This document shows, piece after piece, positions 330 through 18,372 of a stretch of DNA of 64,000 nt. How positions within the stretch are numbered: the first letter of the stretch is position 1; the number at the start of each line of letters is the position of its first letter. A program made the position numbers and the translations under genes. The notes beneath the pieces are model-generated. The model saw only the letters and a list, made by a program, of their open reading frames with translations, had not been told where the DNA came from and searched no databases. This DNA is from a virus. Its lineage: Duplodnaviria; Heunggongvirae; Uroviricota; Caudoviricetes. The DNA lies in the IMG/VR virus record IMGVR_UViG_3300042398_001452; one strand, given 5' to 3'.

Positions 330-372
330 AATCATTTTTTTCTTTAAATAGAATTTTCTACATTAGCTAAAC
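330..372 (+). promoter_or_regulatory. EPM: conserved early-promoter-like motif (consensus AAATCATTTTTTTATTTGTAGAAAATTCTATATATTAGCTATG)
   Basis: Motif copy about 20 nt upstream of the 394 ORF. Confidence 0.55.
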
Positions 373-393
373 AAACCAATTAAATCAAATAAT

Positions 394-591
394 ATGTCTC
401 CTAAAACAAAAGAAGTGGAAGTAACACCACAAGAAGAATTGAACCAAAGGATCGCTACTGCAATAGCAAATTGCGAGGAGCTAATTCACAACCTAAGATT
501 AAGCTACGATCTTCGGGCTAACAAAAGGATATCTGATATCATCGTAGCTCAAGAGTTATCCTTGATGGAACTAAAAGCCCTCTTAAGATAA
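394..591 (+). CDS. hypothetical small protein (65 aa)
   Basis: Track ORF. The early-promoter-like motif (EPM) ends about 20 nt upstream of the ATG. Confidence 0.55.
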   Translation: MSPKTKEVEVTPQEELNQRIATAIANCEELIHNLRLSYDLRANKRISDIIVAQELSLMELKALLR

Positions 592-592
592 G

Positions 593-634
593 CGGGGTCC
601 CTCCCAGGAGGCCGCGCATGTACGTGCGTAGCAG
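593..634. repeat. GC-rich hairpin element (GCH), copy 1 of 6
   Basis: GCGGGGTCCCTCCCAGGAGGCCGCGCATGTACGTGCGTAGC contains two stacked short hairpins (CCTCC/GGAGG and CGCA/TGCG). Lies immediately 5' of an EPM. Confidence 0.55.
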
Positions 635-648
635 TAAATAATACCAGG

Positions 649-691
649 AATCATTTTTTTAATTAGCTAGATTTTTCTACATTAGAATTAA
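649..691 (+). promoter_or_regulatory. EPM copy
   Basis: GAATCATTTTTTTAATTAGCTAGATTTTTCTACATTAGAATTA upstream of the 707 ORF. Confidence 0.55.
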
Positions 692-706
692 CAAACACAT
701 AAACCT

Positions 707-1027
707 ATGAAATATTTTGGAATTGCAGATGCACACGGAATCGAAAGCTTCATTAAAGGTGATCCAAACGAGGAAGAGCACTCACGTCAAGCTATGATCC
801 TAAACCTTAGAGCAGGAGCTAACCGTCACAGACACGCAGTAGTATACGTTGTTGACATCCCTGAAGACACTGCAGAAGAGGTAGACGATCTTATCATTGC
901 TGGTAATTACATAGGTGCTTTAGAACACCTTAAAAGCTCGATAAAGGAGCTTCAACTAACTAGTCTACCCGGCGCAGAAAAGAGCTGGGGACTTATCCCG
1001 AATCCAGATTTGGATCCTTATAATTAG
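707..1027 (+). CDS. hypothetical protein (106 aa)
   Basis: Track ORF with an EPM copy upstream and a terminator hairpin downstream. Confidence 0.6.
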   Translation: MKYFGIADAHGIESFIKGDPNEEEHSRQAMILNLRAGANRHRHAVVYVVDIPEDTAEEVDDLIIAGNYIGALEHLKSSIKELQLTSLPGAEKSWGLIPNPDLDPYN

Positions 1028-1046
1028 GCGGAACCTGTCCGCTGCG

Positions 1047-1074
1047 GCCTGGGTGATTCACCCAGGCTTTTTTG
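1047..1074 (+). terminator. rho-independent terminator
   Basis: GCCTGGGTG-ATTC-ACCCAGGC hairpin plus TTTTTT. Confidence 0.7.
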
Positions 1075-1111
1075 TGAGCTAAGGTTTCCGAATGATTCTT
1101 TGAATCTCCCT

Positions 1112-1126
1112 CTGAGGAACCCCAGG
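1112..1126. repeat. CTGGGGAACCCCAGG-family palindrome (PAL)
   Basis: CTGAGGAACCCCAGG, between a terminator and an EPM. Confidence 0.6.
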
Positions 1127-1140
1127 TGATTTGATCAGGA

Positions 1141-1181
1141 AATCATTTTTTTCTTTGTAGAAAAATCCATATATTAGCTAT
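1141..1181 (+). promoter_or_regulatory. EPM copy
   Basis: AATCATTTTTTTCTTTGTAGAAAAATCCATATATTAGCTAT directly abutting ATG 1182. Confidence 0.6.
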
Positions 1182-1511
1182 ATGAAAGATAAGGATATAT
1201 TACAAAGAATCAAACAACTATCGGTTGAAGATTGGTTTAAGAATGGTGATGATGCACCTGAAGAGATCTACGATGAGCTTTATGAAATAGAAGCTGAGAA
1301 CGATGATCTTGTGTATCTTCTCGAGTTAACTATTACAGGTCCAGGTCTCACCGATGTTTGGCTTTCCCGTGGTGTACTTATTGGTGATGTTTTTGCGTGG
1401 GGAGATGGATTAGAGGAAGGTGAGGAAGTTACTGAGGATGAGATCTACGAAGATAATCAAATGTTCATAGCGGAGAGAAGAGCTAATTTAATAGAGGAGA
1501 TCGTTTTATGA
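1182..1511 (+). CDS. hypothetical acidic protein (109 aa)
   Basis: Track ORF. EPM copy immediately upstream. Stop overlaps the start of the next gene (ATGA). Confidence 0.6.
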   Translation: MKDKDILQRIKQLSVEDWFKNGDDAPEEIYDELYEIEAENDDLVYLLELTITGPGLTDVWLSRGVLIGDVFAWGDGLEEGEEVTEDEIYEDNQMFIAERRANLIEEIVL

Positions 1512-2350
1512 AGTTAACTAATGAACAAATAGAATGGTTAAATAGCTGCCAAGGATGGGCTTACTTAAAAGCTAAATGGACATTTAACGAAGAAACCGGA
1601 CTAGTAGACGTAGATGGAGATTTTAAAACCCCAAATTCCCATAATTCTTGTAAAGCTTTAGGGAGGAACGGAGGTAAAAGATATGGAGGTATTTCTGATT
1701 TTATGGGTATTAAATTCGGTACTGTTACTGGTGATTTTGATTGCTCATATAACAATCTAACAAATCTAGAGGGAGCGCCTATTTACGTGGGAAAGAATTT
1801 TGATTGCTCATATAATGATCTCACAAGCTTAGTGGGAGCACCACAAGAAGTTGGAGGTTCCTTCAGTTGTATAGATAATAATCTCACAAGTCTTATTGGA
1901 TCTCCTCGAAGGGTTAATCGTCACTTCCACTGTGCTTACAACAAACTACCAAATCTAGTAGGAGCTCCTATGTACGTGGGAGAGAATTTCTGGTGCAGTG
2001 ATTTACCCAATGATCGTCATATAGAAAGTCTGCAGGGAGCAGAAGAATGTATAATACGGGGAGATTTCGATTGTCATTACAACAAATTGAAAGATTTAAA
2101 AGGTGCTCCTAGATTAATTTACGGTCAATTTAGGGTCTATGGTAATTATGAAGGAAATTACAAACGGATTAAAAAAGATACATTCGGGATAATAACCAGG
2201 ATAATGGAAGAAAAAAATCTAGGCTATTTTGGCGCTTTGTGCTATCTAAAAGACACCTTGGATAAGAAGGAATGGAACAAGCTAGCAAAAGGATATGATA
2301 TAACAGCCGAAGCTTTAAGAGCATATTCTATTATTTCAAGATATTCATAG
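1508..2350 (+). CDS. LRR-like repeat protein (about 7 tandem 22-23-aa repeats, F-C-x-Y-N-x-LTSL-x-GAP-x-V-G)
   Basis: Internal periodicity is visible in the translation: FDCSYNNLTNLEGAP / FDCSYNDLTSLVGAP / FSCIDNNLTSLIGSP and so on. LxxNxLxxL cores resemble leucine-rich repeats. Confidence 0.7.
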   Translation: MKLTNEQIEWLNSCQGWAYLKAKWTFNEETGLVDVDGDFKTPNSHNSCKALGRNGGKRYGGISDFMGIKFGTVTGDFDCSYNNLTNLEGAPIYVGKNFDCSYNDLTSLVGAPQEVGGSFSCIDNNLTSLIGSPRRVNRHFHCAYNKLPNLVGAPMYVGENFWCSDLPNDRHIESLQGAEECIIRGDFDCHYNKLKDLKGAPRLIYGQFRVYGNYEGNYKRIKKDTFGIITRIMEEKNLGYFGALCYLKDTLDKKEWNKLAKGYDITAEALRAYSIISRYS

Positions 2351-2392
2351 AATCATTTTTTTCTTTAAGTAGAATTTTCTACATTAGCTAAG
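2351..2392 (+). promoter_or_regulatory. EPM copy
   Basis: Upstream of the 2411 ORF. Confidence 0.6.
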
Positions 2393-2410
2393 TAACCAAA
2401 ATAAAAAAAT

Positions 2411-2887
2411 ATGAGAGATCACAGAAACCCACACGGAGCAAACACTCAAGAACTAAAAGAGCAAAAATTAGCGGATAATTTATTGTTCGCTGAATTCCAA
2501 TGGAACGATGCTAAGACATTAGAAGATAAGAAACGAGCTTTAGATCAGGTCAACCTCGCTATGAAAGAGATTGAAAAATTCGAAGCTGGTAGAAAGGACA
2601 ACAAGAAACCGAACCTTTACTTCGATGTGGATCCTTCGCTTATTCCTATGATGATGCAGGAGATGGAAGCTCGTATTATACGTCACGAAAGATTACAAAA
2701 TTGGCAGAACCCCGAATGGATGGACAAGCAATTGGATGAGTTAAGCAACTTGAAAGAGATGGGCTACTCCGAAAGTGAAGCATTGAAATATGTAGGTATC
2801 CTTGGTAATTCCGTTAGAGAGGTAAGAGAGATCCTAGATCTTGGTGTCGAATGGGACAACCAATCATGGGAAGAACAAAGAGGTTAA
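2411..2887 (+). CDS. hypothetical protein (158 aa)
   Basis: Track ORF with EPM upstream. Confidence 0.6.
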   Translation: MRDHRNPHGANTQELKEQKLADNLLFAEFQWNDAKTLEDKKRALDQVNLAMKEIEKFEAGRKDNKKPNLYFDVDPSLIPMMMQEMEARIIRHERLQNWQNPEWMDKQLDELSNLKEMGYSESEALKYVGILGNSVREVREILDLGVEWDNQSWEEQRG

Positions 2888-2894
2888 TTTACAA

Positions 2895-2938
2895 AATCAT
2901 TTTTTTTATTAAATAGAATTTTCTATATTAGCTAAGTA
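2895..2938 (+). promoter_or_regulatory. EPM copy
   Basis: Upstream of the 2959 ORF. Confidence 0.6.
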
Positions 2939-2958
2939 ACTAATTAAAACTAAAACCA

Positions 2959-3330
2959 ATGGCAAAATGTAACAACTGCGGGGACGAAAGAAAAATAGTA
3001 AGAGTCCTTTCATCTTGTGGATTAACAGGAGCGCGTCAATATGTAGAAATGGGAGAATGTGATTGTGACGACATCTCAGGAAGAATGGTAGACTTTGGTG
3101 AGAATCCCCACTACGAAGAGATTGAGGCTAAAAAAAAGTCCTATCCGCCTCATATTCAAAGAAAGATCGATCAGCTTGAAGAGCTAGAAGAAATGAATAT
3201 GGCATTGGGCTTTCACGACAAGATAGCTTCTGTTAGACATTTGATTGCTAAAGAAATAGAAGAAGAGGCAAAGAAAGAAGCGAGGGTTGCTAATAAAAGA
3301 GTAGAATCCGGATGGTTCATGTATACATGA
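2959..3330 (+). CDS. hypothetical protein with N-terminal Cys cluster (123 aa)
   Basis: Track ORF with EPM upstream. Contains CNNCG...C.CDD cysteines. A terminator follows. Confidence 0.6.
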   Translation: MAKCNNCGDERKIVRVLSSCGLTGARQYVEMGECDCDDISGRMVDFGENPHYEEIEAKKKSYPPHIQRKIDQLEELEEMNMALGFHDKIASVRHLIAKEIEEEAKKEARVANKRVESGWFMYT

Positions 3331-3384
3331 ACGTAACTATATAGCCGCTGCAAAACCGAGGGGTTAAGAGATGGCAAAACCAAG

Positions 3385-3410
3385 AGAGGACTTTTAAGTC
3401 CTCTTTTTTT
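3385..3410 (+). terminator. rho-independent terminator
   Basis: AGAGGACTTTTAAGTCCTCT plus T7. Confidence 0.7.
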
Positions 3411-3442: not shown

Positions 3443-3457
3443 CTGGGGAACCCCAGG
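3443..3457. repeat. PAL copy
   Basis: CTGGGGAACCCCAGG (perfect 6+2+6 palindrome). Confidence 0.65.
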
Positions 3458-3494: not shown

Positions 3495-3537
3495 AATCAT
3501 TTTTTTATCTGTAGAAAATTCTCTATATTAGCATTGT
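3495..3537 (+). promoter_or_regulatory. EPM copy
   Basis: Upstream of the 33-aa ORF at 3555. Confidence 0.55.
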
Positions 3538-3687: not shown

Positions 3688-3710
3688 AGAGGCTATACGC
3701 CTCTTTTTTT
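3688..3710 (+). terminator. rho-independent terminator
   Basis: AGAGGC-TATAC-GCCTCT plus T7. Confidence 0.7.
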
Positions 3711-3714
3711 CAGA

Positions 3715-3760
3715 AATCATTTTTTTATTTATGTAGAATTTTCTATATTTGTATTGTAAC
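3715..3760 (+). promoter_or_regulatory. EPM copy
   Basis: Upstream of the 3778 ORF. Confidence 0.6.
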
Positions 3761-4814: not shown

Positions 4815-4837
4815 AAGACCCTTCGGGGTCTTTTTTT
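4815..4837 (+). terminator. rho-independent terminator
   Basis: AGACCC-TTCG-GGGTCT plus T7. Confidence 0.75.
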
Positions 4838-4868: not shown

Positions 4869-4883
4869 CTGGGGAACCCCAGG
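4869..4883. repeat. PAL copy
   Basis: CTGGGGAACCCCAGG. Confidence 0.65.
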
Positions 4884-4898: not shown

Positions 4899-4940
4899 AA
4901 TCATTTTTTTATTTGTAGAAAATTCCATACATTAGCTAAG
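4899..4940 (+). promoter_or_regulatory. EPM copy
   Basis: Upstream of the 4954 ORF. Confidence 0.6.
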
Positions 4941-5660: not shown

Positions 5661-5705
5661 AATCATTTTTTTCTTTAAGTAGAAATTTCTATATTTGTAA
5701 TGTTA
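5661..5705 (+). promoter_or_regulatory. EPM copy
   Basis: Upstream of the sigma-factor gene at 5725. Confidence 0.6.
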
Positions 5706-6620: not shown

Positions 6621-6646
6621 GAGGAGACTTCGGTCTCCTTTTTTTG
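6621..6646 (+). terminator. rho-independent terminator
   Basis: GAGGAGAC-TTCG-GTCTCC plus T7. Confidence 0.75.
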
Positions 6647-6674: not shown

Positions 6675-6689
6675 CTGAGGTTCCCCAGG
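6675..6689. repeat. PAL copy
   Basis: CTGAGGTTCCCCAGG. Confidence 0.55.
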
Positions 6690-6818: not shown

Positions 6819-6858
6819 AATCATTTTTTTAATTAAATAAGATTACTTATATTAGCTA
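6819..6858 (+). promoter_or_regulatory. EPM copy
   Basis: Upstream of the 6860 ORF. Confidence 0.55.
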
Positions 6859-6859
6859 T

Positions 6860-7183
6860 ATGGAAACAATCGATAGAAAGGTATTTGAATCCCATGATCT
6901 ATTTGCAGAGATCATGAAGAAGGAATCACACCACGATCATGAGATTGTTGACGAAGGACATGGTTCAAGATGGAAGGAAGATCCAGATGTAGTTAAGCTT
7001 GTTGATGACATGGGAGGTTTAAATAACATTGTAAGACTATTCTTCTCACTTGGTATCACAAAGAATTCTGAAGAATGGAGGAAACTCTACAGAGATATAG
7101 GTTATTCACTCTATGGATATTGGGAGATATTCTATTGGGATATGAATAACGAAGATGCTGCTGATTATCGTTCAGATTGTTAG
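6860..7183 (+). CDS. hypothetical protein (107 aa)
   Basis: Track ORF with EPM upstream and terminator downstream. Confidence 0.55.
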   Translation: METIDRKVFESHDLFAEIMKKESHHDHEIVDEGHGSRWKEDPDVVKLVDDMGGLNNIVRLFFSLGITKNSEEWRKLYRDIGYSLYGYWEIFYWDMNNEDAADYRSDC

Positions 7184-7204: not shown

Positions 7205-7231
7205 AAAGGTCGGATTCGCATCCGGCCTTTT
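7205..7231 (+). terminator. rho-independent terminator
   Basis: GGTCGGAT-TCGC-ATCCGGCC plus TTTT. Confidence 0.6.
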
Positions 7232-7271: not shown

Positions 7272-7286
7272 CTGGGGAACCGCAGG
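7272..7286. repeat. PAL copy
   Basis: CTGGGGAACCGCAGG. Confidence 0.55.
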
Positions 7287-7309: not shown

Positions 7310-7350
7310 AATCATTTTTTTTATCAATGTTTTATTACTATCTTTGCATC
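7310..7350 (+). promoter_or_regulatory. EPM copy (degenerate 3' half)
   Basis: AATCATTTTTTTTATCAATGTTTTATTACTATCTTTGCATC before ATG 7351. Confidence 0.4.
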
Positions 7351-7902
7351 ATGGGATACACAACAGAATTTGAAGGTCGATTTGACCTGGATAGAGAATT
7401 AAGCGAGGAGATGTTTAATTTTCTAAAATCATTCAACGAGACAAGGAGAATGAAAAGAAAGATTAGTGACGAATTTGGTGTGGAGGGTGAATTTTTCGTA
7501 AAAGGAGGTAGCTATTTTGGTCAAGGTCGTGAGGATAATATAATTGAGTATAATGAACCTCCGAGTACACAACCCGGGCTATGGTGTCAATGGACACCTA
7601 CGGAAGACCGAAAAGGAATTGAATGGGATGGGGGAGAGAAATTTTATGACTATACCGAATGGCTAGTATATCTTGTTAATAAGATACTTGCCCCGAATGG
7701 ATATGTCTTAAACGGAGCCGTTCAATGGGAGGGTGAAGAAAGAGGTGACAGAGGAAAAATTATAGTCGAGAACAATAAAGTCTATACTAAGAAGGGAAGG
7801 TTAAAAGACGAGATAACCCCAGAAAATGCTAGGAAGTACATAGCAGGTGAAGGATGGAAATACGATTTTATGATGGCCGAGACTGTTTTAAAATTGTCTT
7901 AA
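7351..7902 (+). CDS. hypothetical protein (about 183 aa; the track ORF 7327..7902 probably starts at the internal ATG 7351)
   Basis: A degenerate EPM copy ends just before 7351. Terminator at 7921. Confidence 0.55.
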   Translation: MGYTTEFEGRFDLDRELSEEMFNFLKSFNETRRMKRKISDEFGVEGEFFVKGGSYFGQGREDNIIEYNEPPSTQPGLWCQWTPTEDRKGIEWDGGEKFYDYTEWLVYLVNKILAPNGYVLNGAVQWEGEERGDRGKIIVENNKVYTKKGRLKDEITPENARKYIAGEGWKYDFMMAETVLKLS

Positions 7903-7920: not shown

Positions 7921-7946
7921 AAGGCCGATGTAGTTCGGCCTTTTTT
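7921..7946 (+). terminator. rho-independent terminator
   Basis: AGGCCGA-TGTAG-TTCGGCCT plus T6. Confidence 0.7.
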
Positions 7947-7990: not shown

Positions 7991-8032
7991 AATCATTTTT
8001 TTATTAGTAGAAAAATCCATATATTTGCTATG
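7991..8032 (+). promoter_or_regulatory. EPM copy
   Basis: Upstream of the 8054 ORF. Confidence 0.6.
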
Positions 8033-8378: not shown

Positions 8379-8400
8379 AGGAGCTTAGGCTCCTTTTTTT
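8379..8400 (+). terminator. rho-independent terminator
   Basis: GGAGC-TTAG-GCTCC plus T7. Confidence 0.7.
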
Positions 8401-8431: not shown

Positions 8432-8446
8432 CTGGGGAACCCCAGG
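8432..8446. repeat. PAL copy
   Basis: CTGGGGAACCCCAGG. Confidence 0.65.
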
Positions 8447-8460: not shown

Positions 8461-8502
8461 AATCATTTTTTTATCTCGCTGGAAAATACTATATTTACTA
8501 TA
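8461..8502 (+). promoter_or_regulatory. EPM copy
   Basis: Upstream of the small ORF at 8503. Confidence 0.55.
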
Positions 8503-8976: not shown

Positions 8977-9020
8977 AATCATTTTTTTCTTTTCATAGAT
9001 TTTTCTACATTTGTTGTGTA
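8977..9020 (+). promoter_or_regulatory. EPM copy
   Basis: Upstream of the 9030 ORF. Confidence 0.55.
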
Positions 9021-9533: not shown

Positions 9534-9577
9534 AATCATTTTTTTATCTATGTAGAATTTTCTATATTAGCTATGTA
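9534..9577 (+). promoter_or_regulatory. EPM copy
   Basis: Upstream of the 9594 ORF. Confidence 0.6.
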
Positions 9578-9982: not shown

Positions 9983-10023
9983 AATCATTTTTTTATCTGT
10001 AGAAGAATCCATATATTAGCTTA
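9983..10023 (+). promoter_or_regulatory. EPM copy
   Basis: Upstream of the 10047 ORF. Confidence 0.6.
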
Positions 10024-10046
10024 GTTAATCAATTAAACAAAACCAA

Positions 10047-10506: not shown

Positions 10507-10547
10507 AATCATTTTTTTAAACAAAGCATTTTAAATACATTTACCTC
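10507..10547 (+). promoter_or_regulatory. EPM copy (degenerate)
   Basis: Abuts ATG 10548. Confidence 0.4.
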
Positions 10548-10811
10548 ATGAACACTTACAAATTTAGAGCAGAATGCCTTATTGATGTGATACAATTCAT
10601 GGGTCATGCACCAGAACTAATACAAAACATAGAGGTAGACAAGGATGAAAGGTTTCCTGATTGCTATGTCACTCTTAAAACCCTCTCAGATATGTCAGAG
10701 GTACTAAATAAAATACTTGAAATGAAAGGAGACGTTCATGTTATGTTTGAAAGCCTTCAACCAGAAGGAGAATACACAGGGCAAAGAATAAGAAGCTTCT
10801 TTCATTCATAA
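10548..10811 (+). CDS. hypothetical protein (87 aa)
   Basis: Track ORF with a degenerate EPM copy upstream. Confidence 0.55.
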   Translation: MNTYKFRAECLIDVIQFMGHAPELIQNIEVDKDERFPDCYVTLKTLSDMSEVLNKILEMKGDVHVMFESLQPEGEYTGQRIRSFFHS

Positions 10812-10882: not shown

Positions 10883-10912
10883 GGATTCGGCTTCGGCTCG
10901 GATCCTTTTTTT
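10883..10912 (+). terminator. rho-independent terminator
   Basis: GGATTCGGC-TTCG-GCTCGGATCC (imperfect) plus T7. Confidence 0.6.
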
Positions 10913-10948: not shown

Positions 10949-10963
10949 CTGGGGAACCCCAGG
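10949..10963. repeat. PAL copy within a longer conserved element (GGCCAGCTTGATTCACCTGGGGAACCCCAGG..GATCCAGCC)
   Basis: The extended element recurs at 12371-12425 and 12921-12953. Confidence 0.65.
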
Positions 10964-11016: not shown

Positions 11017-11060
11017 AATCATTTTTTTATGTAGAATATTCTACTTATATTTGTATTGTT
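11017..11060 (+). promoter_or_regulatory. EPM copy
   Basis: Upstream of the 11083 ORF. Confidence 0.55.
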
Positions 11061-11410: not shown

Positions 11411-11436
11411 AGGAACCTTAGGGTTCCTTTTTTACA
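11411..11436 (+). terminator. rho-independent terminator
   Basis: AGGAACC-TTAG-GGTTCCT plus T6. Confidence 0.75.
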
Positions 11437-11446: not shown

Positions 11447-11461
11447 CTGCGGTTCCCCAGG
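11447..11461. repeat. PAL copy
   Basis: CTGCGGTTCCCCAGG, preceded by ACATCCCAACCCA as in the copy at 15311. Confidence 0.6.
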
Positions 11462-11486: not shown

Positions 11487-11527
11487 AATCATTTTTTTAT
11501 TCTAGATAAATCTCTTATATTTACTAT
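11487..11527 (+). promoter_or_regulatory. EPM copy
   Basis: Abuts ATG 11528. Confidence 0.5.
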
Positions 11528-12307
11528 ATGATATACAACCAAATATATGACTTCTGTAAGGTAAGAAATCTAGGAAGTGTTTTTGAAAATACTGATGTGC
11601 CTACACCGAGGGTGGAATTCCTACTAGAGCTTCTTGAGAAAGAAGGAGTCTCTTATGAGATCGATCGGTACAAGAAAACATTTAACTTTCTAGAGGAGCA
11701 AACAGATGTTTGGTGTTACAACATTATACTAAGGGGTGACTCAGATAAGATGCTAGTTGCTCATCATGATGTTGCTAACCATGAAATCGATAATGCTAAT
11801 GACAACTCCGCTTCCGTTATCAACGCAATAGCTTTAAAGAAAATGTTACCTAACATTCACGTTGTGTTATTAGACGGTGAGGAATTCGGAGGCATCGGAG
11901 CACAAAGAGTATCCGAACAAATCAATAAGGGAGACTTCGGTGATATCTCTTTTGTACTTAACCTTGAACTATCAGGTAAGGGAGGTAAACAATTTTTCGT
12001 CGGAGACGTTGGGGAATTCCCGAGTATACTCCATGAAAAAATTAAATCACAATTTCCATGTCCCACTGTTAGCACTCCGTTTAATGACTCGGTGGTGTTC
12101 AGAAGAAATGGTATAGACTCTTGCGTGATAAATCCTTTACCTAGCACGGATAATATTAATCCTCTCTCCCGAGCTATCTTTGAAGGAAGACAACTAGATA
12201 TGTCAATGCTTTACCACTGCCACACCTCGAAGGACACAATCGATACTATCGACCCAAATGATATGAAAGAATTCACCGAAGAGGTTGTTTTTAAAATTCT
12301 TGAATAA
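11528..12307 (+). CDS. hypothetical protein, possibly an M28/M20-like zinc peptidase fold (259 aa)
   Basis: HHDVANHEIDNANDNSASV followed by LLDGEEFGGIGAQ resembles the H-x-D...D-N-x-S-G and E-E-x-G motifs of M28/M20 aminopeptidases. Weak, motif-level only. Confidence 0.45.
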   Translation: MIYNQIYDFCKVRNLGSVFENTDVPTPRVEFLLELLEKEGVSYEIDRYKKTFNFLEEQTDVWCYNIILRGDSDKMLVAHHDVANHEIDNANDNSASVINAIALKKMLPNIHVVLLDGEEFGGIGAQRVSEQINKGDFGDISFVLNLELSGKGGKQFFVGDVGEFPSILHEKIKSQFPCPTVSTPFNDSVVFRRNGIDSCVINPLPSTDNINPLSRAIFEGRQLDMSMLYHCHTSKDTIDTIDPNDMKEFTEEVVFKILE

Positions 12308-12331
12308 GTAATCCTTCCATCCATAGAAGAG

Positions 12332-12358
12332 TCAGCATTTTATATGCTGGCTTTTTTT
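12332..12358 (+). terminator. rho-independent terminator
   Basis: CAGCAT-TTTATAT-GCTGG plus T7. Confidence 0.65.
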
Positions 12359-12392
12359 GTGGTCCAAAAAACTTAGGCCAGCTTGATTCACC

Positions 12393-12407
12393 TGGGGAAC
12401 CACAGCA
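12393..12407. repeat. PAL copy (degenerate)
   Basis: CTGGGGAACCACAGC within the extended GGCCAGCTTGATTCACCTG element. Confidence 0.5.
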
Positions 12408-12440: not shown

Positions 12441-12482
12441 AATCATTTTTATTTCTGTAGAATAATCTATACTTTAGCCTAG
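12441..12482 (+). promoter_or_regulatory. EPM copy
   Basis: Upstream of the 12504 ORF. Confidence 0.55.
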
Positions 12483-12884: not shown

Positions 12885-12908
12885 AAGCCAGCAATGCTGG
12901 CTTTTTTT
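12885..12908 (+). terminator. rho-independent terminator
   Basis: AGCCAGCA-ATGC-TGGCT plus T7. Confidence 0.7.
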
Positions 12909-12938: not shown

Positions 12939-12953
12939 CTGAGGCTCCCCAGG
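12939..12953. repeat. PAL copy
   Basis: CTGAGGCTCCCCAGG within the extended element. Confidence 0.55.
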
Positions 12954-12976: not shown

Positions 12977-13018
12977 AATCATTTTTTTGTTTGTGGAAAA
13001 ATCTATATATTAGCTATG
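12977..13018 (+). promoter_or_regulatory. EPM copy
   Basis: Upstream of the 13042 ORF. Confidence 0.6.
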
Positions 13019-13199: not shown

Positions 13200-13240
13200 A
13201 ATCATTTTTTTAATCAAATAGAATTTTCTACATTTACATT
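13200..13240 (+). promoter_or_regulatory. EPM copy
   Basis: Upstream of the 13256 ORF. Confidence 0.55.
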
Positions 13241-13255
13241 ATAAAACAAAATCAC

Positions 13256-13487: not shown

Positions 13488-13512
13488 AAGACTCCACAAG
13501 GGTCTTTTTTTG
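13488..13512 (+). terminator. rho-independent terminator
   Basis: AGACTC-CACAA-GGGTCT (imperfect) plus T7. Confidence 0.6.
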
Positions 13513-13548: not shown

Positions 13549-13564
13549 CTGAGGAACCACAGAG
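13549..13564. repeat. PAL copy (degenerate)
   Basis: CTGAGGAACCACAGAG. Confidence 0.45.
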
Positions 13565-13606
13565 AATCATTTTTTTATTTGTGGAAAAATCTTTATATTT
13601 GGATAT
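13565..13606 (+). promoter_or_regulatory. EPM copy
   Basis: Upstream of the 13634 ORF. Confidence 0.55.
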
Positions 13607-14157: not shown

Positions 14158-14182
14158 AAAGACCCTACAAGGGTCTTTTTTT
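14158..14182 (+). terminator. rho-independent terminator
   Basis: AGACCC-TACAA-GGGTCT plus T8. Confidence 0.75.
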
Positions 14183-14222: not shown

Positions 14223-14237
14223 CTGAGGAACCTCAGG
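14223..14237. repeat. PAL copy
   Basis: CTGAGGAACCTCAGG, where both arms changed (G to A with C to T) and the palindrome is preserved. Confidence 0.65.
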
Positions 14238-14344: not shown

Positions 14345-14388
14345 AATCATTTTTTTATTTGTAGAAAATTCCATACATTAGCTATGTT
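14345..14388 (+). promoter_or_regulatory. EPM copy
   Basis: Upstream of the 14409 ORF. Confidence 0.6.
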
Positions 14389-14729: not shown

Positions 14730-14757
14730 CCCTTGTCCGTTCGGACAGGGGTTTTTT
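14730..14757 (+). terminator. rho-independent terminator
   Basis: CCTTGTCCG-TTCG-GACAGGGG plus T6. Confidence 0.7.
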
Positions 14758-14802: not shown

Positions 14803-14872
14803 TGGATTCAAAGAATCAGACCTCCTGAGATACCCCGAAAACTTTTTTCAAAAAAAATCAGAAATCATTTTT

Positions 14873-14914
14873 TTATTTGTAGAAAATTCTATATTTTAGC
14901 TAAGTTAATCAATT
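14873..14914 (+). promoter_or_regulatory. EPM copy
   Basis: Upstream of the 14929 ORF. Confidence 0.6.
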
Positions 14915-15273: not shown

Positions 15274-15297
15274 GGGAATCTTCGGATTCCCTTTTTT
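15274..15297 (+). terminator. rho-independent terminator (paralogous hairpin GGGAATC-TTCG-GATTCCC)
   Basis: Hairpin plus T6. Same hairpin family as those at 15576 and 16604. Confidence 0.7.
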
Positions 15298-15310: not shown

Positions 15311-15325
15311 CTGCGGTTCCGCAGG
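15311..15325. repeat. PAL copy
   Basis: CTGCGGTTCCGCAGG, where both arms changed (G to C with C to G) and the palindrome is preserved. Confidence 0.65.
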
Positions 15326-15357: not shown

Positions 15358-15401
15358 AATCATTTTTTTATTTGTAGAAAATTCTATATATTAGCTATGT
15401 T
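15358..15401 (+). promoter_or_regulatory. EPM copy (exact consensus)
   Basis: Upstream of the 15422 ORF. Confidence 0.6.
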
Positions 15402-15421
15402 AATCAATCAAATAAAAACAT

Positions 15422-15571: not shown

Positions 15572-15575
15572 AATT

Positions 15576-15600
15576 GGGGAATCTCCGGATTCCCTTTTTA
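15576..15600 (+). terminator. rho-independent terminator (GGGGAATC-TCCG-GATTCCC)
   Basis: Hairpin plus T5. Confidence 0.65.
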
Positions 15601-15613
15601 ATTTATATACCCT

Positions 15614-15630
15614 CTGCGGAACCCCAGAGG
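15614..15630. repeat. PAL copy
   Basis: CTGCGGAACCCCAGAGG. Confidence 0.55.
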
Positions 15631-15673
15631 GGCTCCATGGGGGACGCGTGCGTACGTGCGCCCGCGTAGAGGG
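15631..15673. repeat. GCH copy 5
   Basis: GGCTCCATGGGGGACGCGTGCGTACGTGCGCCCGCGTAGAGGG, 5' of EPM 15684. Confidence 0.55.
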
Positions 15674-15683
15674 TTTTTTCAGA

Positions 15684-15724
15684 AATCATTTTTTTATCTT
15701 CCCTAGATTTATTATATTTACACT
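15684..15724 (+). promoter_or_regulatory. EPM copy (degenerate)
   Basis: Abuts ATG 15725. Confidence 0.45.
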
Positions 15725-15928
15725 ATGTCACTAACACCACAACAATTAAAAGCTAATGCAGACTTCTTTAATAATGTAGCTGCAATGACCAAGATGTATG
15801 TGTGGCCTGATACTGGCCACATTTATAAAATAGAAGAAGGGATCTTTATCTGTGACTCCCCGGAATCATTTAATGATTTAAAAGATAACACTCCAGAAAC
15901 TTTCCATTATAAAATCAAAATGAAATAA
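15725..15928 (+). CDS. hypothetical protein (67 aa)
   Basis: Track ORF with EPM upstream. Confidence 0.5.
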   Translation: MSLTPQQLKANADFFNNVAAMTKMYVWPDTGHIYKIEEGIFICDSPESFNDLKDNTPETFHYKIKMK

Positions 15929-15981
15929 AATAAATCCTTATATTTGTATTATACATTTAAATTTTATTCCCATAAAATTTG

Positions 15982-16010
15982 AACCCTAGAAGAAATTCTA
16001 GGGTTTTTTT
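15982..16010 (+). terminator. rho-independent terminator
   Basis: AACCCTAGA-AGAAAT-TCTAGGGTT plus T7. Confidence 0.75.
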
Positions 16011-16072
16011 GTGTAATCAAAATACAAGCATATAGTAAGACACCGGAGTTTCCTCGATAGATCTTATACCCC

Positions 16073-16090
16073 ATAGCGGAACCCCAGGGG
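16073..16090. repeat. PAL copy (first of a 3-copy cluster)
   Basis: ATAGCGGAACCCCAGGGG. Confidence 0.55.
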
Positions 16091-16119
16091 ATAAAAAAAA
16101 ATTAAATATATAAAACCCC

Positions 16120-16134
16120 CTGCGGAACCCCCAG
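16120..16134. repeat. PAL copy (cluster)
   Basis: CTGCGGAACCCCCAG. Confidence 0.55.
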
Positions 16135-16156
16135 TTAAAATTTTAAAAAATACCTT

Positions 16157-16176
16157 GGAAGGTTCCGCAGGGAACC
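16157..16176. repeat. PAL-related palindrome in shifted register (cluster)
   Basis: GGAAGGTTCCGCAGGGAACC contains GGTTCC-gcag-GGAACC. Confidence 0.5.
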
Positions 16177-16215
16177 ATTAAAATAAATTTTTAGAAATTT
16201 CCACTTTTTTCCAAG

Positions 16216-16258
16216 AATCATTTTTTTGTTTGTAGAAAAATCCATATATTAGCTATGT
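16216..16258 (+). promoter_or_regulatory. EPM copy
   Basis: Upstream of the 16281 ORF. Confidence 0.6.
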
Positions 16259-16280
16259 TAATCAATTAAACAAAAACAAA

Positions 16281-16583
16281 ATGAAAAAGGAAACAGTAAA
16301 AAAACCAGTTGCTAAAAAATCAGTTAAAAATTCTAACACTCCAGAATGGTTAAATCTGGAAAAGTTTGAAATGAGTTTTGAACATAAAATCAGACTTTTT
16401 AGAAATCTGAAACTTGAAACTACAAACTCCTACTGTGCAACTCCGGGTACTCCTCTTAAATTTGAAAAAATTAAAAATGAGGATAACAAGATTGTTTATC
16501 GAGTTCGCCGCAACGGTCGTAGAACTTTCTTTACAACTTGCGACCATTTGAAAAATCAAGTTGAAACAATACCCGCGGAATAA
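16281..16583 (+). CDS. member D of the 4-copy basic-protein paralog family
   Basis: ...WLNLEKFEMSFEHKIRLFRNLKLE...RVRRNGRRTFFTT. EPM upstream. Confidence 0.7.
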   Translation: MKKETVKKPVAKKSVKNSNTPEWLNLEKFEMSFEHKIRLFRNLKLETTNSYCATPGTPLKFEKIKNEDNKIVYRVRRNGRRTFFTTCDHLKNQVETIPAE

Positions 16584-16603
16584 TCGGGTTTACAAAAAAT
16601 AAA

Positions 16604-16628
16604 GGGGGAATCTCCGGATTCCCTTTTT
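16604..16628 (+). terminator. rho-independent terminator (GGGGGAATC-TCCG-GATTCCC)
   Basis: Hairpin plus T5. Confidence 0.65.
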
Positions 16629-16641
16629 AATAAAAATTTCT

Positions 16642-16656
16642 CTGCGGAACCCCAGG
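16642..16656. repeat. PAL copy
   Basis: CTGCGGAACCCCAGG. Confidence 0.6.
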
Positions 16657-16680
16657 AACACTGATCAGAAAAGATTCAGA

Positions 16681-16722
16681 AATCATTTTTTTTATTTGGA
16701 AAAATCTATTATATTAGCTATG
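16681..16722 (+). promoter_or_regulatory. EPM copy
   Basis: Upstream of the 16741 ORF. Confidence 0.55.
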
Positions 16723-16740
16723 TAATCAAACTAAGAACAA

Positions 16741-16947
16741 ATGGACATTTTAGAAGTTTTCAAATCTATAAAACAAAGTAGAAAAAATCTTAAAGATTTA
16801 GAAGCCCAAGTGATTCTTTTATGGGGAGATCTCTATTGGCTTAATAGTGATTTTCAAAGTAGTAATGAAGCTGCTATGATGGAAAAGATTAGTACAGATA
16901 TTCAATATGATTTACAAAAATATAATTCATTTATTTCATTAAACTAG
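16741..16947 (+). CDS. hypothetical protein (68 aa)
   Basis: Track ORF with EPM upstream. Confidence 0.5.
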   Translation: MDILEVFKSIKQSRKNLKDLEAQVILLWGDLYWLNSDFQSSNEAAMMEKISTDIQYDLQKYNSFISLN

Positions 16948-17003
16948 AAAATAAATTCTTATATTTGTAGTTCATAAAATATTTATTCTTGGAATAAACA
17001 CTA

Positions 17004-17032
17004 AACCCTAGATTGATCATCTAGGGTTTTTT
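17004..17032 (+). terminator. rho-independent terminator
   Basis: AACCCTAGAT-TGATC-ATCTAGGGTT plus T6. Confidence 0.75.
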
Positions 17033-17065
17033 GTGTGTAAAAAAAATCTATACTATATGATTCCC

Positions 17066-17080
17066 CTGCGGCACCCCAAC
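17066..17080. repeat. PAL copy (CTGCGGCACCCC subtype)
   Basis: CTGCGGCACCCCAAC. Confidence 0.5.
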
Positions 17081-17122
17081 GAGATTTTTTATGTATTTAA
17101 TTTTTATATACTATTTTTACAT

Positions 17123-17137
17123 TGGGGGAACCGCAGG
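17123..17137. repeat. PAL copy
   Basis: TGGGGGAACCGCAGG. Confidence 0.5.
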
Positions 17138-17161
17138 AAGACTAATAAGAAAAGATTTAGA

Positions 17162-17205
17162 AATCATTTTTTTATATGTAGAAAAATCCATATATTTATA
17201 TAATC
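17162..17205 (+). promoter_or_regulatory. EPM copy with no ORF downstream (ATG-TAA immediately, then a terminator)
   Basis: The motif is intact. The downstream 17222..17297 region ends in a hairpin plus T-run. Confidence 0.5.
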
Positions 17206-17266
17206 AATAAAACAAAAAGAAATGTAATATTATCATTTAAAAAATAAAATCCCCAATCCCCCAATG

Positions 17267-17296
17267 GAAGAGTTGTATAACTCTTCTTTTTTTTGT
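17267..17296 (+). terminator. rho-independent terminator closing the ORF-less transcript from EPM 17162
   Basis: GAAGAGTT-GTAT-AACTCTTC plus T8. Confidence 0.65.
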
Positions 17297-17323
17297 GGAA
17301 AATTTTAAAACTATTTAAGCTCC

Positions 17324-17337
17324 CTGAGGAACCCCAC
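17324..17337. repeat. PAL copy
   Basis: CTGAGGAACCCCAC. Confidence 0.5.
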
Positions 17338-17417
17338 ATAAAAATTGTAGAGTATAATAGTAAAGTAATAGTAAGAATAGTAAGTAATAGTAGTAAAAAT
17401 GTATTACCATAATTCCT

Positions 17418-17432
17418 CTGCGGCACCCCAGG
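17418..17432. repeat. PAL copy (CTGCGGCACCCCAGG subtype)
   Basis: CTGCGGCACCCCAGG. Confidence 0.6.
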
Positions 17433-17462
17433 GTGGTAAATATATAATTAACTATTTTCAGA

Positions 17463-17505
17463 AATCATTTTTTTATATGTAGTATAATCCATATATTTAC
17501 TTAAT
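17463..17505 (+). promoter_or_regulatory. EPM copy
   Basis: Upstream of the 17519 ORF. Confidence 0.55.
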
Positions 17506-17518
17506 CAATCATTCAAAC

Positions 17519-17755
17519 ATGGCATCATCTAAAACATCTTCAAGCATTAGTATCACAACAGTACTATTTCTGATATTCCTAACTCTTAAACTAACTAACC
17601 TCATAGCATGGTCTTGGTGGTGGGTCACAGCTCCTTTATGGATACCTGTATTACTAGCAATAGCTATTATAGTGATAGCTGCATCAGTAATCATTATTGC
17701 ATTTGCTCTAGGATTCTCCGGAGATGACATTAAAAGAAGAATAAGAAGAAATTAA
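17519..17755 (+). CDS. hypothetical membrane protein (78 aa)
   Basis: Track ORF with EPM upstream. Hydrophobic W-rich core. Confidence 0.5.
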   Translation: MASSKTSSSISITTVLFLIFLTLKLTNLIAWSWWWVTAPLWIPVLLAIAIIVIAASVIIIAFALGFSGDDIKRRIRRN

Positions 17756-17771
17756 CTTAACACACAATATA

Positions 17772-18008
17772 ATGGAAAATCAAACAAAAGTAGATTATCT
17801 AAAAACACTCTTTACTGTAACAGAAGTACAAGATGAAGGATGTAGCTTTGAAGCTCCCGACTGCTATGAAGCATATATCTTATTTGAAGACTTTCAAGTA
17901 GGGGACACCGCGAATGATATATGTAGTGCTTCAGAATACTACTCATGCTGTGGAGACGTATTAGACAAAGACTATATGATGTGTCCAACTTGCTACGAAC
18001 ATTGCTAA
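17772..18008 (+). CDS. hypothetical Cys-rich protein (78 aa)
   Basis: Track ORF. CxxC...CC...CPTC cysteines. Terminator at 18041. Confidence 0.5.
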   Translation: MENQTKVDYLKTLFTVTEVQDEGCSFEAPDCYEAYILFEDFQVGDTANDICSASEYYSCCGDVLDKDYMMCPTCYEHC

Positions 18009-18040
18009 TTTCATAGTTCATAGATTAACAAAAAAAGAGA

Positions 18041-18062
18041 GGAGCTTTATGCTCCTTTTTTT
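18041..18062 (+). terminator. rho-independent terminator
   Basis: GGAGC-TTTAT-GCTCC plus T7. Confidence 0.7.
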
Positions 18063-18081
18063 ATGCACATCTCTTTTCCCT

Positions 18082-18096
18082 CTGCGGCACCCCAGG
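18082..18096. repeat. PAL copy (CTGCGGCACCCCAGG subtype)
   Basis: CTGCGGCACCCCAGG. Confidence 0.6.
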
Positions 18097-18128
18097 GAAT
18101 ACAATTAATATAATTAATTATTTTCAGA

Positions 18129-18172
18129 AATCATTTTTTTATTCGTGGAAAAATCCATATATTTATATAGTT
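18129..18172 (+). promoter_or_regulatory. EPM copy
   Basis: Upstream of the 18193 ORF. Confidence 0.55.
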
Positions 18173-18192
18173 AATCAATTAAACATATAAAC

Positions 18193-18372
18193 ATGAAAAA
18201 ACTAAATCTCTTCATCACACTAACTATCCTAGTATTACCAATAGGAACTATCCTAATGCTAGGAGGTAATCACATAGGAGAATACCTAGTATCAATAGGC
18301 TCTATTATGGGTCTTTATACATGCTACCTTCTAGACCAAGAAGAACAGAAAAAACCCGAAAACCAACCCTAA
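18193..18372 (+). CDS. possible 59-aa membrane peptide
   Basis: ATG after EPM copy 18129. Hydrophobic N-terminal two-thirds. Confidence 0.4.
   Translation: MKKLNLFITLTILVLPIGTILMLGGNHIGEYLVSIGSIMGLYTCYLLDQEEQKKPENQP

Follow-up and report, generated by a model that had tools for sequence, protein, structure and literature searches.

What kind of transcription programme is laid out in an 18-kb part of the viral record IMGVR_UViG_3300042398_001452, where one small gene after another is preceded by nearly the same promoter-like sequence, and which RNA polymerase would read it? The window analyzed here is a 64,000-nt stretch of this Caudoviricetes genome (33% G+C), and the locus in question, hereafter the block, occupies positions 330 to 18372. 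The answer that we favour, and hold to be fairly probable as a whole, is that the block is a set of early cassettes resembling the promoter-early stem-loop (PeSL) cassettes of T4-type phages, driven by strong promoters of the host sigma-A type, in an uncultured large phage of Bacteroidota. The host would be a member of the Bacteroidota, probably of the Flavobacteriia. The initial annotation had proposed host-type Bacteroidota promoters followed by genes and terminators; this general idea fits the sequence grammar, whereas the boxes and the start site that it assigned are displaced.

The 32 promoter-motif copies in 18 kb counted by the initial annotation were recovered at the same positions by a pattern scan with a shuffle control: 32 copies with the full architecture lie on the + strand between 330 and 18170. 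The grammar AATCnTTTTTT-N18-TAnnTTwG has 31 matches, compared with 0.00 expected from 100 shuffles, and the 29-nt consensus at three or fewer mismatches has 7 (0 expected); exact matches to ATCATTTTT number 38 on the + strand of the window and 8 on the - strand. All 32 copies are intergenic, and 31 of them face an open reading frame (ORF), the exception being the copy at 17162. The block contains 39 ORFs on the + strand, with a median length of 103 aa, which cover 71% of it. Terminators were found in 22 of the 32 units and a palindrome in 17, the complete promoter-gene-terminator-palindrome order being present in about half. Both elements are thus real, whereas their earlier attribution to almost every gene was overstated, and the 43-nt string quoted as the repeated motif has a single exact occurrence in the window, at 15357.

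Every copy consists of AATCATTTTTTT, exactly 17 nt, and then TAyATTw(G/A), this 8-mer beginning exactly 28 nt past the A of ATCA (32/32). The copies were aligned on this fixed skeleton, with +1 set 40 nt past the same A. The upstream element AATCATTTTTTT then spans -41 to -30 and is invariant across the aligned copies, although positions -40 to -32 were used in collecting them. AATCA corresponds to -41 to -37; the T7 run stands where a -33 element would be expected, T being found at each position from -36 to -30 in 31-32 of 32 copies and G in none. The -7 element spans -12 to -5, with T-12, A-11, T-8, and T-7 in all 32 copies; -10 is T or C and -9 is A, G being absent from both positions throughout; -6 is split between A (17 copies) and T (15), and at -5 there are 24 copies with G and 8 with A. 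A T-rich tract at -28 to -26 and an A-rich tract at -21 to -18 lie between the two boxes.

Promoters of the primary sigma factor of Bacteroidota (sigma-ABfr) are characterized by -33 TTTG and -7 TAnnTTTG (Baez et al. 2019, PMC6847099). For F. johnsoniae, the -7 element was described as T-12, A-11, T-8, T-7, T-6, and G-5 with virtually no G at -10/-9, the start site as lying 4-5 nt from it, the -33 element as weak, and AT-rich motifs as centred at -18 and -28, with leaders longer than 10 nt in 87% of the transcripts examined (PMC6847099). The phage motif conforms to this -7 type (TAnnTTTG/TAHHTTTG) and shares with sigma-ABfr promoters the invariant -7 positions, the lack of G at -10/-9, the implied 4-nt gap to the start, the AT-rich stretches around -18 and -28, and leaders that lack a Shine-Dalgarno sequence. 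The differences are the A residues at -6 and -5 counted above, the invariant AATCATTTTTTT at -41 to -30 instead of TTTG at -33, and the approximately one-quarter of phage units that appear leaderless. The comparison with the Bacteroidetes -33/-7 consensus suggested earlier thus holds for the -7 element and fails for the -33 TTTG.

Since the motif fits the F. johnsoniae -7 description position by position, the boxes first assigned to it (TTTG and TAGCTATG) are displaced. The assigned TTTG is in place in 8 of the 32 copies, TAGCTATG in 6, and both in 4, and this TTTG lies only 12 nt from the -7 box; the spacing between Bacteroidota -33 and -7 elements is about 19-21 nt. The true -7 box sits 7 nt upstream of the box formerly taken for it, which would overlap the start codon in 8 copies and whose last base is the predicted +1, where a start 5-10 nt farther downstream had been proposed.

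The position of the start is suggested by the distances between the -7 box and the ATG. Among 180 distinct copies from the window and its relatives, 21 have the ATG at exactly 4 nt and none at 6-10 nt, whereas leadered copies are broadly distributed over 11-30 nt, with a mode of 27. The spike at 4 nt and the gap that follows it argue that transcription would start 4-5 nt past the -7 box and that a subset of transcripts would be leaderless. In the window, eight units have the ATG exactly 4 nt past the box (1182, 6860, 7351, 8502, 10548, 11528, 15725, and 59486), all but the last inside the block, and these probably yield leaderless mRNAs. The leadered units have a conserved A-rich leader, GTTAATCAATTAAA or GTAACCAATTAAA, lacking a Shine-Dalgarno sequence. 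A mini-ORF in the leader (ATG-TTA-ATC-AAT-TAA) was considered and rejected, its ATG being not conserved (TATG and TAAG alternate) and lying upstream of the predicted start.

The motif was then followed beyond the window. A megablast search of positions 1-20000 against 50,697 deposited phage genomes gave no match, and tblastn matches of the helicase and sigma factor in deposited phages were all below 40% identity, with no cultured relative. A pattern scan of IMG/VR found the skeleton in multiple copies on four contigs of 86-248 kb, where terminators and the palindrome recur: contig A (3300036770_006296, 206 kb), contig B (3300032307_000764, 248 kb), contig C (3300027734_000044, 130 kb), and contig D (3300035670_000118, 86 kb), the last being near-identical to A where the two overlap. 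The two largest of them (206-248 kb) each carry at least ~40-55 distinct promoter copies in the parts examined. Early proteins of the window are 55-97% identical to those of A/D and 34-71% identical to those of B/C, and several have no counterpart in the compared loci. The motif also sits before the sigma gene of a more distant relative, L163, whose sigma factor is 68% identical.

As a control for circularity, sites were ascertained by the spacer and -7 signature alone and the upstream 12-mer was scored afterwards; it lies within one mismatch of AATCATTTTTTT in 68 of 74 sites (window 11/12, A 18/19, B 22/25, C 17/18). Identity to A/D reaches 96.9% in the upstream element, 94.5% in the -7 box, and 86.9% in the palindrome, compared with 78.7% in the spacer, 78.1% in other intergenic DNA, and 69.6% at third codon positions. 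The 96.9 and 94.5% of the two boxes against the 78.7% of the spacer indicate that the boxes, and not the spacer, are under purifying selection.

In 185,579 bacterial and archaeal genomes, the promoter pattern gives scattered single matches and is multi-copy only on two short contigs of a metagenome-assembled genome (MAG). Among the matches listed, 49 of 80 single genomic matches are in Bacteroidota by record titles, so the grammar is compatible with Bacteroidota promoters. Judged by these scans, the repeated element is specific to this phage lineage. The two MAG contigs, L079 and L083 (JBEIFG010000127.1 and JBEIFG010000110.1), are labelled "Chlamydiales bacterium" and carry 5+1 exact promoter copies, 17 under a relaxed grammar, and 8 palindromes; almost certainly, both are of phage origin and were mis-binned with bacterial DNA.

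As regards the polymerase, the window encodes two sigma-70-family proteins of its own, at 5725-6597 (290 aa) and 41416-42279 (287 aa). They are 35% identical to each other, and both contain regions 1.2, 2, 3, and 4 and lack region 1.1. The first gene lies behind a perfect motif copy (5661), the second behind a degenerate one (41344). A second motif, (G)GATATATAA, has 12 exact copies in the window, compared with 3.0 expected, almost all outside the early block (19735, 20963, 25459(-), 26561, 30562, 42484, 46721, 49983(-), 51013, 60656, and others). Its distance to the ATG or GTG that follows is 3-5 or ~15 nt, and it is also found upstream of several L163 genes. This motif is probably a middle or late promoter class, in which case many of its transcripts would be leaderless, and it is plausibly read by a phage sigma factor. 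Since GATATATAA is available for a phage sigma and the -7 box of the AATCA-T7 class is host-like, we favour the host sigma-A holoenzyme as the reader of the latter.

The strongest competitor, which we regard as unlikely though worth carrying forward, is that the motif is a phage-private promoter class, AATCATTTTTTT serving as a -35-like element at the classical -35 to -10 spacing (17 nt) for a phage RpoD-like sigma or a phage-modified holoenzyme, so that the promoters would be auto-amplified early-middle rather than plain host promoters. The invariant 12-nt upstream element is under strong purifying selection and absent from the host consensus, in which -33 is weak; both sigma-70-family genes stand behind the motif, and in the bacterial genomes it is multi-copy only on the two probable mis-binned phage contigs. 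Against this, nothing distinguishes the -7 box from that of the host, expression of the sigma genes requires a promoter already active before any phage sigma exists, the unrelated motif GATATATAA is available for the phage sigmas, and Bacteroidota hold the majority of the listed single genomic matches. A virion-polymerase model on the pattern of the crAss-like phage phi14:2 was dropped, given that no giant polymerase ORF is present in the window and that the phi14:2 paper reports no common motif of early transcripts.

The second sigma (41416-42279) has many metagenomic homologues of 287-288 aa, with 66-93% identity, on contigs of up to 344 kb. These homologues point to a large, widespread phage lineage, which may be related to the "moraphages" (PMC12619734). 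An attempt to tie this sigma to cellular Bacteroidota RpoD was dropped, as the one homologue contig examined (68% identity) looks like phage, and a search of the PDB found no Bacteroidota sigma structure.

The second repeated element of the cassettes is the palindrome CTGGGGAACCCCAGG. At two or fewer mismatches it has 17 matches, all within the block, against 0.01 expected. Multiple copies of the exact 15-mer were seen in contigs A and D alone, while B, C, and the MAG contigs carry variants. The 46 distinct copies from the window and its relatives yield the consensus CTGnGG-nn-CCnCAG, in which the fourth base of each arm and the two central bases vary and ten positions (CTG-GG, CC-CAG) were fixed by the search pattern. 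The variable stem pair is complementary in 21 of the 46 copies, compared with 20.1 expected from the marginal frequencies. Such an absence of covariation argues that base pairing is not the conserved property, and the element looks like a dyad-symmetric recognition sequence. The dyad also has an orientation bias, with AA in the centre of 28 of 46 copies and a partly conserved right flank, GAAnnyTGATC.

The distances from the dyad end to AATCA fall into classes of 14-16, 24-27, 33-36, 44-46, and 52-56 nt, which place the dyad centres near -62.5/-63.5, -73 to -75, -82 to -84, -93 to -94, and -101 to -104 relative to the predicted +1; some copies lie 100-180 nt from the promoter. When the window (n=17) and contig A (n=14) were tested separately at period 10.5, the Rayleigh test gave p=0.002 and p=0.014, respectively, and the mean phase was the same in both; the pooled distances of up to 60 nt have a best period of 10.25-10.5 (p ~1e-5; 0 of 5000 random sets reach it under the same scan), all of these p-values being optimistic because the copies are partly related by descent, as orthologues and paralogues. 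Serial or tandem duplication of a 10-11-nt unit was rejected as the origin of the spacing classes, since the fillers between dyad and promoter are mutually unrelated sequences. Helical phasing of this kind suggests that a dimeric protein would act on RNA polymerase from a single side of the helix. In class I activator promoters, sites such as those of CRP are centred at -61.5, -71.5, -82.5, and -92.5. The phage arrangement resembles them in having a dyad-symmetric site upstream at distances differing by whole helical turns; unlike theirs, the phage dyad is only 14 bp long, and its half-sites CTGnGG are unrelated to the CRP and FNR boxes.

A third kind of element, on the opposite strand, adjoins the block. 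A minus-strand promoter copy (18581..18621, with AATCATTTTTTT at 18621 and TATATTAG at 18593-18586) stands ahead of a short non-coding unit, ~69 nt without an ORF, which ends in a hairpin and T-run; promoter and unit together span 18513-18621. The core of this antisense unit, CTCCATATATCTTTTAGTTGGTTACA, is conserved in contigs A and D (L040 9514-9640 on the + strand; L009 in reverse complement), and a search for the locus in more relatives found it only in these two. Within it, the conserved core UUUUAGUUGGUUACAUA is antisense to the shared early leader UAUGUAACCAAUUAAAA. Against the 32 leaders, the core has a mean duplex energy of -12.3 kcal/mol, whereas shuffled cores give -7.2 +/- 0.7; energies of -12 kcal/mol or lower are seen with 14 leaders where 1.9 are expected. 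We regard the unit as a candidate antisense RNA that would act in trans on the early mRNAs, or else as an inverted-leader relic.

Taken jointly, these elements could be read as a self-contained phage regulon with three private layers: an RpoD-like sigma of the phage or a phage-modified holoenzyme for the AATCA-T7 promoters, a dyad that is the operator of a phage global activator or repressor switching all cassettes together, and a ~69-nt minus-strand RNA (18621 to ~18513) that shuts the early mRNAs off post-transcriptionally. We consider this combination improbable.

Less probable again, to the point of being hard to maintain, is the proposal that the palindrome works by forming a hairpin, in read-through RNA as a back-up terminator or a site of processing, or else as a cruciform or a site of recombination by which cassettes are mobilised, like an integron attC. 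The palindrome does trail terminators by 14-15 or 30-41 nt, the copy at 13549 together with the promoter T-run resembles a terminator, and cassette indels are found near it. The hairpin was nevertheless rejected for want of covariation at the sole variable stem position; in addition, divergent relatives preserve the sequence itself at 10 of the 14 positions of the palindrome, its 6-bp stem and 2-nt centre make a poor hairpin, and phasing with the promoter would be meaningless for an RNA element. As for integron cassettes, those of the block have promoters of their own, the clean indel 7297-7956 does not have its breakpoints at the palindrome, and no integrase or other recombinase was found among the 50 window ORFs scanned. 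Among the regulatory elements, none reaches the gathering score of an Rfam family: the sole Rfam family found in the window is a transfer-messenger RNA (tmRNA) at 23446-23866 (+), which scores 92.7 bits against a gathering score of 47 and for which ARAGORN gives the tag peptide ANVYNTEDIMSIPTSLTRVAVAEEAELLMAA.

The cassettes are gained and lost as whole units. Synteny between contig A and the window, at 70-90% nucleotide identity, is broken by whole-unit indels. The cassette 7297-7956 (promoter 7310, gene 7351-7902, terminator 7923-7946) is absent from L029, which has ~9 nt in its place between homologous flanks; opposite window positions 8977-9593, L029 has 1.3 kb of different cassettes; and the two cassettes at 11433-12972 correspond to 230 nt in L009. 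Nearly all of the encoded proteins are ORFans. Of 30 early proteins scanned against Pfam, 27 have no match at E<=0.01 and 2 matches are sub-threshold, the sigma factor and an M28 peptidase passing; none of 10 early proteins tested had a PHROG match.

Duplication is evident in two gene sets. Four paralogues of ~100 aa, 65-81% identical (8054-8359, 11083-11394, 14929-15249, and 16281-16583), are basic proteins that share a conserved RVRRTGRRTFFTT and an N-terminal helix rich in Lys/Arg; every member comes with a promoter and terminator of its own, and homologues are present in contigs A-D. No Pfam or PHROG match was found for this family, AlphaFold2 gave a predicted local distance difference test score (pLDDT) of 68 and a predicted template modelling score (pTM) of 0.45, and Foldseek against the PDB returned nothing at E<=0.001. 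The second set is the tandem pair 3778-4278 / 4305-4793 (166/162 aa). The initial annotation had offered strong selection or recent cassette duplication for the near-identity of the promoters; duplication accounts for these two sets only, and elsewhere purifying selection prevails. The broader claim that near-identity stems mainly from recent duplication and gene conversion (concerted evolution), the palindrome and flanks being functionless passengers, can draw on these paralogues, each with its own regulatory copy, and on flanks common to some copies (GATTCACCTGGGG at 10949, 12392, and 12939), yet it is the least credible of the alternatives, as the genes of most cassettes are ORFans without relation to one another, relatives at 34-71% protein identity retain these elements, conservation is concentrated in the two promoter boxes with a spacer like other intergenic DNA, and the palindrome is helically phased across unrelated fillers.

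Under the favoured reading of PeSL-like early cassettes, the block would be a hyperplastic region of the early host-takeover type, made of short transcription units. Each unit would open with a strong Bacteroidota sigma-A type promoter composed of AATCA, the T7 run, T-rich and A-rich tracts at about -28 and -18, and the -7 element, and most likely read by host core polymerase with host sigma-A right after infection. A start 4-5 nt past the -7 box would give either a leader of 12-28 nt, conserved, A-rich, and devoid of a Shine-Dalgarno sequence, or, in eight units, a leaderless mRNA with AUG at its 5' end, and most units would end at an intrinsic terminator, a hairpin followed by a T-run. The dyad between terminator and next promoter would bind a dimeric protein of phage or host origin acting on the downstream promoter by class-I-like activation, by repression, or by insulation. 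The repeated regulatory sequences would be kept by selection and would also be seams for the gain, loss, and swap of whole units among phages.

Several observations weigh against this reading. The copies have TTTT instead of the canonical TTTG at -33, and the invariance of AATCA-T7 exceeds the host consensus, a possible sign of a recognition factor specific to the phage. The -7 box could also be read by the two RpoD-like sigmas, which lack region 1.1, and the visible 64 kb belong to a genome likely larger than 200 kb, which leaves room for a virion-delivered polymerase. The dyad is not essential for promoter function, as 15 of 32 promoters lack it; its phasing draws on copies that share descent; and no candidate for a protein binding it emerged from Pfam, PHROG, and AlphaFold2/Foldseek work on the early proteins. 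Finally, the start site, the timing, and the identity of the polymerase are deduced from sequence.

The 32 copies divide into subclasses by spacer. The largest, class I (15 copies), has the spacer register TTTGTAGAAAAnTCyATA, and 14 of its 15 members follow a terminator and 10 a palindrome. It includes 1141..1182 (TATATTAG; the leaderless ATG at 1182 coincides with the predicted +1), 3495..3536 (ATG 3555), 4899..4940 (ATG 4954), 7991..8032 (TATATTTG; ATG 8054, paralogue family), 9983..10024 (ATG 10047), 12441..12482 (shortened T-run, AATCATTTTTAT; ATG 12504), 12977..13018 (ATG 13042), 13565..13606 (palindrome just 2 nt upstream; ATG 13634), 14345..14386 (ATG 14409), 14863..14904 (TATTTTAG; ATG 14929, paralogue family), 15358..15399 (the sole exact copy of the full consensus first proposed; ATG 15422), 16216..16257 (ATG 16281, paralogue family), 17162..17203, 17463..17504 (ATG 17519), and 18129..18170 (ATG 18193), the final copy of the block. 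The copy 17162..17203 has no ORF downstream, and its unit ends at the terminator 17267-17294; the unit is ~90 nt long with an ATG-TAA at 17224 only, and is a possible small RNA or decayed cassette.

Class II comprises nine copies in which TAGAATTTTCTA overlaps the -7 box and which stand directly against the preceding gene, none of the nine following a palindrome and one following a terminator (class contrast: Fisher p=0.002). These are 330..371 (TACATTAG; predicted +1 371, ATG 394), 649..690 (TACATTAG; ATG 707, with a G+C-rich element upstream), 2351..2392 (abutting the preceding stop codon; ATG 2411), 2895..2936 (ATG 2959), 3715..3756 (perfect TATATTTG; ATG 3778), 5661..5702 (TATATTTG; ahead of the RpoD-like sigma gene), 8977..9018 (abutting the preceding stop; ATG 9030), 9534..9575 (ATG 9594), and 13200..13241 (abutting the preceding stop; ATG 13256). 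An inverted repeat in the spacer, TAGAAnnTTCTA, was rejected as a universal operator: it is perfect mainly in class II, and the spacer is conserved no better than other intergenic DNA.

The third group, eight copies with atypical spacers, holds most of the leaderless units, and seven of the eight have a terminator and a palindrome upstream. Atypical spacers with a leaderless ATG occur at 6819..6860 (ATG 6860), 7310..7351 (TATCTTTG; ATG 7351, in cassette 7297-7956), 8461..8502 (ATG 8502), 10507..10548 (ATG 10548; G+C-rich element upstream), and 15684..15725 (ATG 15725). The block further includes the copies 11017..11058 (TATATTTG; ATG 11083, paralogue family), 11487..11528 (leaderless ATG 11528, M28 peptidase-like), and 16681..16722 (ATG 16741).

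Beyond the block, the later copies reported at 22382, 40382, 53434, and 59445 are present, and others were found at 22781, 35309, 36155, 41344, and 18621 (-), the last being the antisense unit described above. On the + strand, the outlying or degenerate copies are 22382..22423 (outlying; TATCTTTG, ATG 22433), 22781..22822 (degenerate, AATCCTTTTTTT..TAACTTAG; ATG 22831), 35309..35350 (degenerate, AATCTTTTTTTT..TACATTTG), 36155..36196 (degenerate, AATCTTTTTTTT..TACCTTTG; ATG 36233), 40382..40423 (degenerate, AATCGTTTTTT..TACATTAG; ATG 40435), 41344..41385 (degenerate, AATCCTTTTTTT..TACCTTAG; upstream of the second RpoD-like sigma gene), 53434..53475 (outlying; TACATTTG), and 59445..59486 (outlying, AATCATTTTTTA..TATCTTTA; leaderless ATG 59486).

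The 22 curated terminators on the + strand, each after a stop codon, conform to the intrinsic type, a G+C-rich hairpin followed by a T-run at the 3' end of the unit. Their hairpin energies vary between -3.7 and -16.4 kcal/mol, 20 of the 22 being at or below -7, and a generic scan yields 42 terminator-like sites compared with 13.1 expected. Thirteen end in T-run+GTG: 1047..1073, 3386..3410, 4817..4837, 6623..6645, 7923..7946, 8380..8400, 12331..12358, 12887..12908, 13490..13511 (weak stem), 14730..14757, 15984..16010, 17006..17032, and 17267..17294. Two are of the T-run+ACA type (11412..11433 and 15274..15297), and the remaining intrinsic terminators are at 3689..3710, 7208..7231 (short T-run), 10883..10912, 14161..14182, 15577..15599, 16606..16628, and 18041..18062.

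Among the 17 dyads of the block, the most frequent form is CTGGGG-AA-CCCCAG, at 3443..3456, 4869..4882, 8432..8445, and 10949..10962 (38, 16, 15, and 54 nt before AATCA, respectively). CTGCGG-AA-CCCCAG is found at 15614..15627 (56 nt before AATCA) and 16642..16655 (25 nt), and CTGCGG-CA-CCCCAG at 17418..17431 (31 nt) and 18082..18095 (33 nt). The other forms occur once each: CTGAGG-AA-CCCCAG at 1112..1125 (15 nt, centre ~-63.5), CTGAGG-TT-CCCCAG at 6675..6688 (130 nt), CTGGGG-AA-CCGCAG at 7272..7285 (24 nt), CTGCGG-TT-CCCCAG at 11447..11460 (26 nt), CTGGGG-AA-CCACAG at 12392..12405 (35 nt), CTGAGG-CT-CCCCAG at 12939..12952 (24 nt), CTGAGG-AA-CCACAG at 13549..13562 (2 nt), CTGAGG-AA-CCTCAG at 14223..14236 (108 nt), and CTGCGG-TT-CCGCAG at 15311..15324 (33 nt). 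Clusters of degenerate or half palindromes (e.g., GCGGAACCCCAGG, CTGCGGAACCCCC, GGTTCCGCAGG, and CTGCGGCACCCC) are found at 16060-16180, 17060-17135, and 17320-17335, close to the right end of the block, where the intergenic stretches are unusually long.

A G+C-rich element, GGGGTCCC..GGAGGCCGCG(T/C)GCGTACGTGCG..ACGCGTAGG, was observed at 592-634, 6766-6800, 10441-10482, 14288-14330, and 15630-15672, with a related sequence at ~18880-18915. In every case a promoter copy follows 13-26 nt downstream, and the element sometimes takes the place of the terminator; it has strict purine/pyrimidine alternation over up to 25 nt, which makes it prone to form Z-DNA. Its interpretation as a structured RNA is not supported, as its fold z-scores (-1.75 to +0.82) are no better than those of shuffled sequences. 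The block is divided from the rest of the window by a non-coding region of 727 nt (18373-19100) with dense short GGCCC/GGGCC repeats, a direct repeat of 49 nt (18908 and 19011), and two half-palindromes, of which CTGCGGCACCCCC is at 18416 and CTGAGGCACCCCC is at 18462. This region is ~70% conserved in contig A and could be an origin, a terminus, or a regulatory hub. Unusual cargo genes lie at 50027-51007, 60680-62305, 36820-37722, and 11528-12307; the cargo products are a deoxyhypusine synthase homologue (1.5e-41), which adjoins AdoMet decarboxylase in L163, a protein that combines PAS domains with an ATPase domain of the histidine-kinase type, an SPFH/band-7 protein, and the M28 peptidase-like product of the early gene 11528-12307.

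The promoter model is precise and directly testable in its start site, -7 box, and upstream element, and it applies to a widespread uncultured lineage of large aquatic Bacteroidota phages. Transcription signals of Bacteroidota differ from the E. coli paradigm, and few phage promoters have been defined there. The natural variants, 32 here and those counted in the two largest related contigs, are a possible promoter and terminator library for the genetics of Flavobacteriia, and the phased dyad points to a regulator of the block.

Among known systems, the closest to the block are the PeSL cassettes of T4-type phages (Arbiol et al. 2010, PMC2839356; Comeau et al. 2014, PMC4122927). In both, dozens of near-identical strong host-type early promoters are combined with stem-loop terminators in hyperplastic regions, before small ORFans, and whole cassettes are inserted, deleted, or replaced among related phages. 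Like PeSL, the block has a repeated near-consensus host-type promoter (32 copies in 18 kb, their early timing being a prediction) and is hyperplastic, ORFan-linked, and marked by indels at cassette boundaries. Unlike the stem-loops embedded in PeSL promoters (PMC2839356), the 22 terminators precede the promoters as separate elements 20-200 nt upstream, being canonical hairpins with a T-run at the gene end. The sequences are unrelated, the phage promoter having a Bacteroidota -7 element where PeSL has the sigma-70 -35/-10 type; neither this promoter type nor the lack of nucleotide matches to deposited phages points to a T4-like myovirus. The conserved 12-nt upstream element, the phased dyad, and the leaderless subclass are additional here, and mini-circles and promoter and terminator activity were demonstrated by experiment for PeSL, whereas the elements of the block are known from their sequence. 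The cassette-wise gain and loss observed in this lineage extends the PeSL idea of regulatory repeats as shuffling seams beyond T4-like phages.

Arrays of strong host-sigma promoters and terminators are also known from large lytic phages, as in the host-takeover module of SPO1, and the "morons" of lambdoid phages are promoter-gene-terminator units. The block resembles these systems in its many short autonomous units, small proteins of no assigned function, and consensus-like host promoters; it differs in host phylum and promoter type, in the much larger number of units per genome, and in the dyad. We conclude that the block would represent a familiar phage strategy in a new lineage, the new features being the leaderless subclass and the helically phased upstream dyad.

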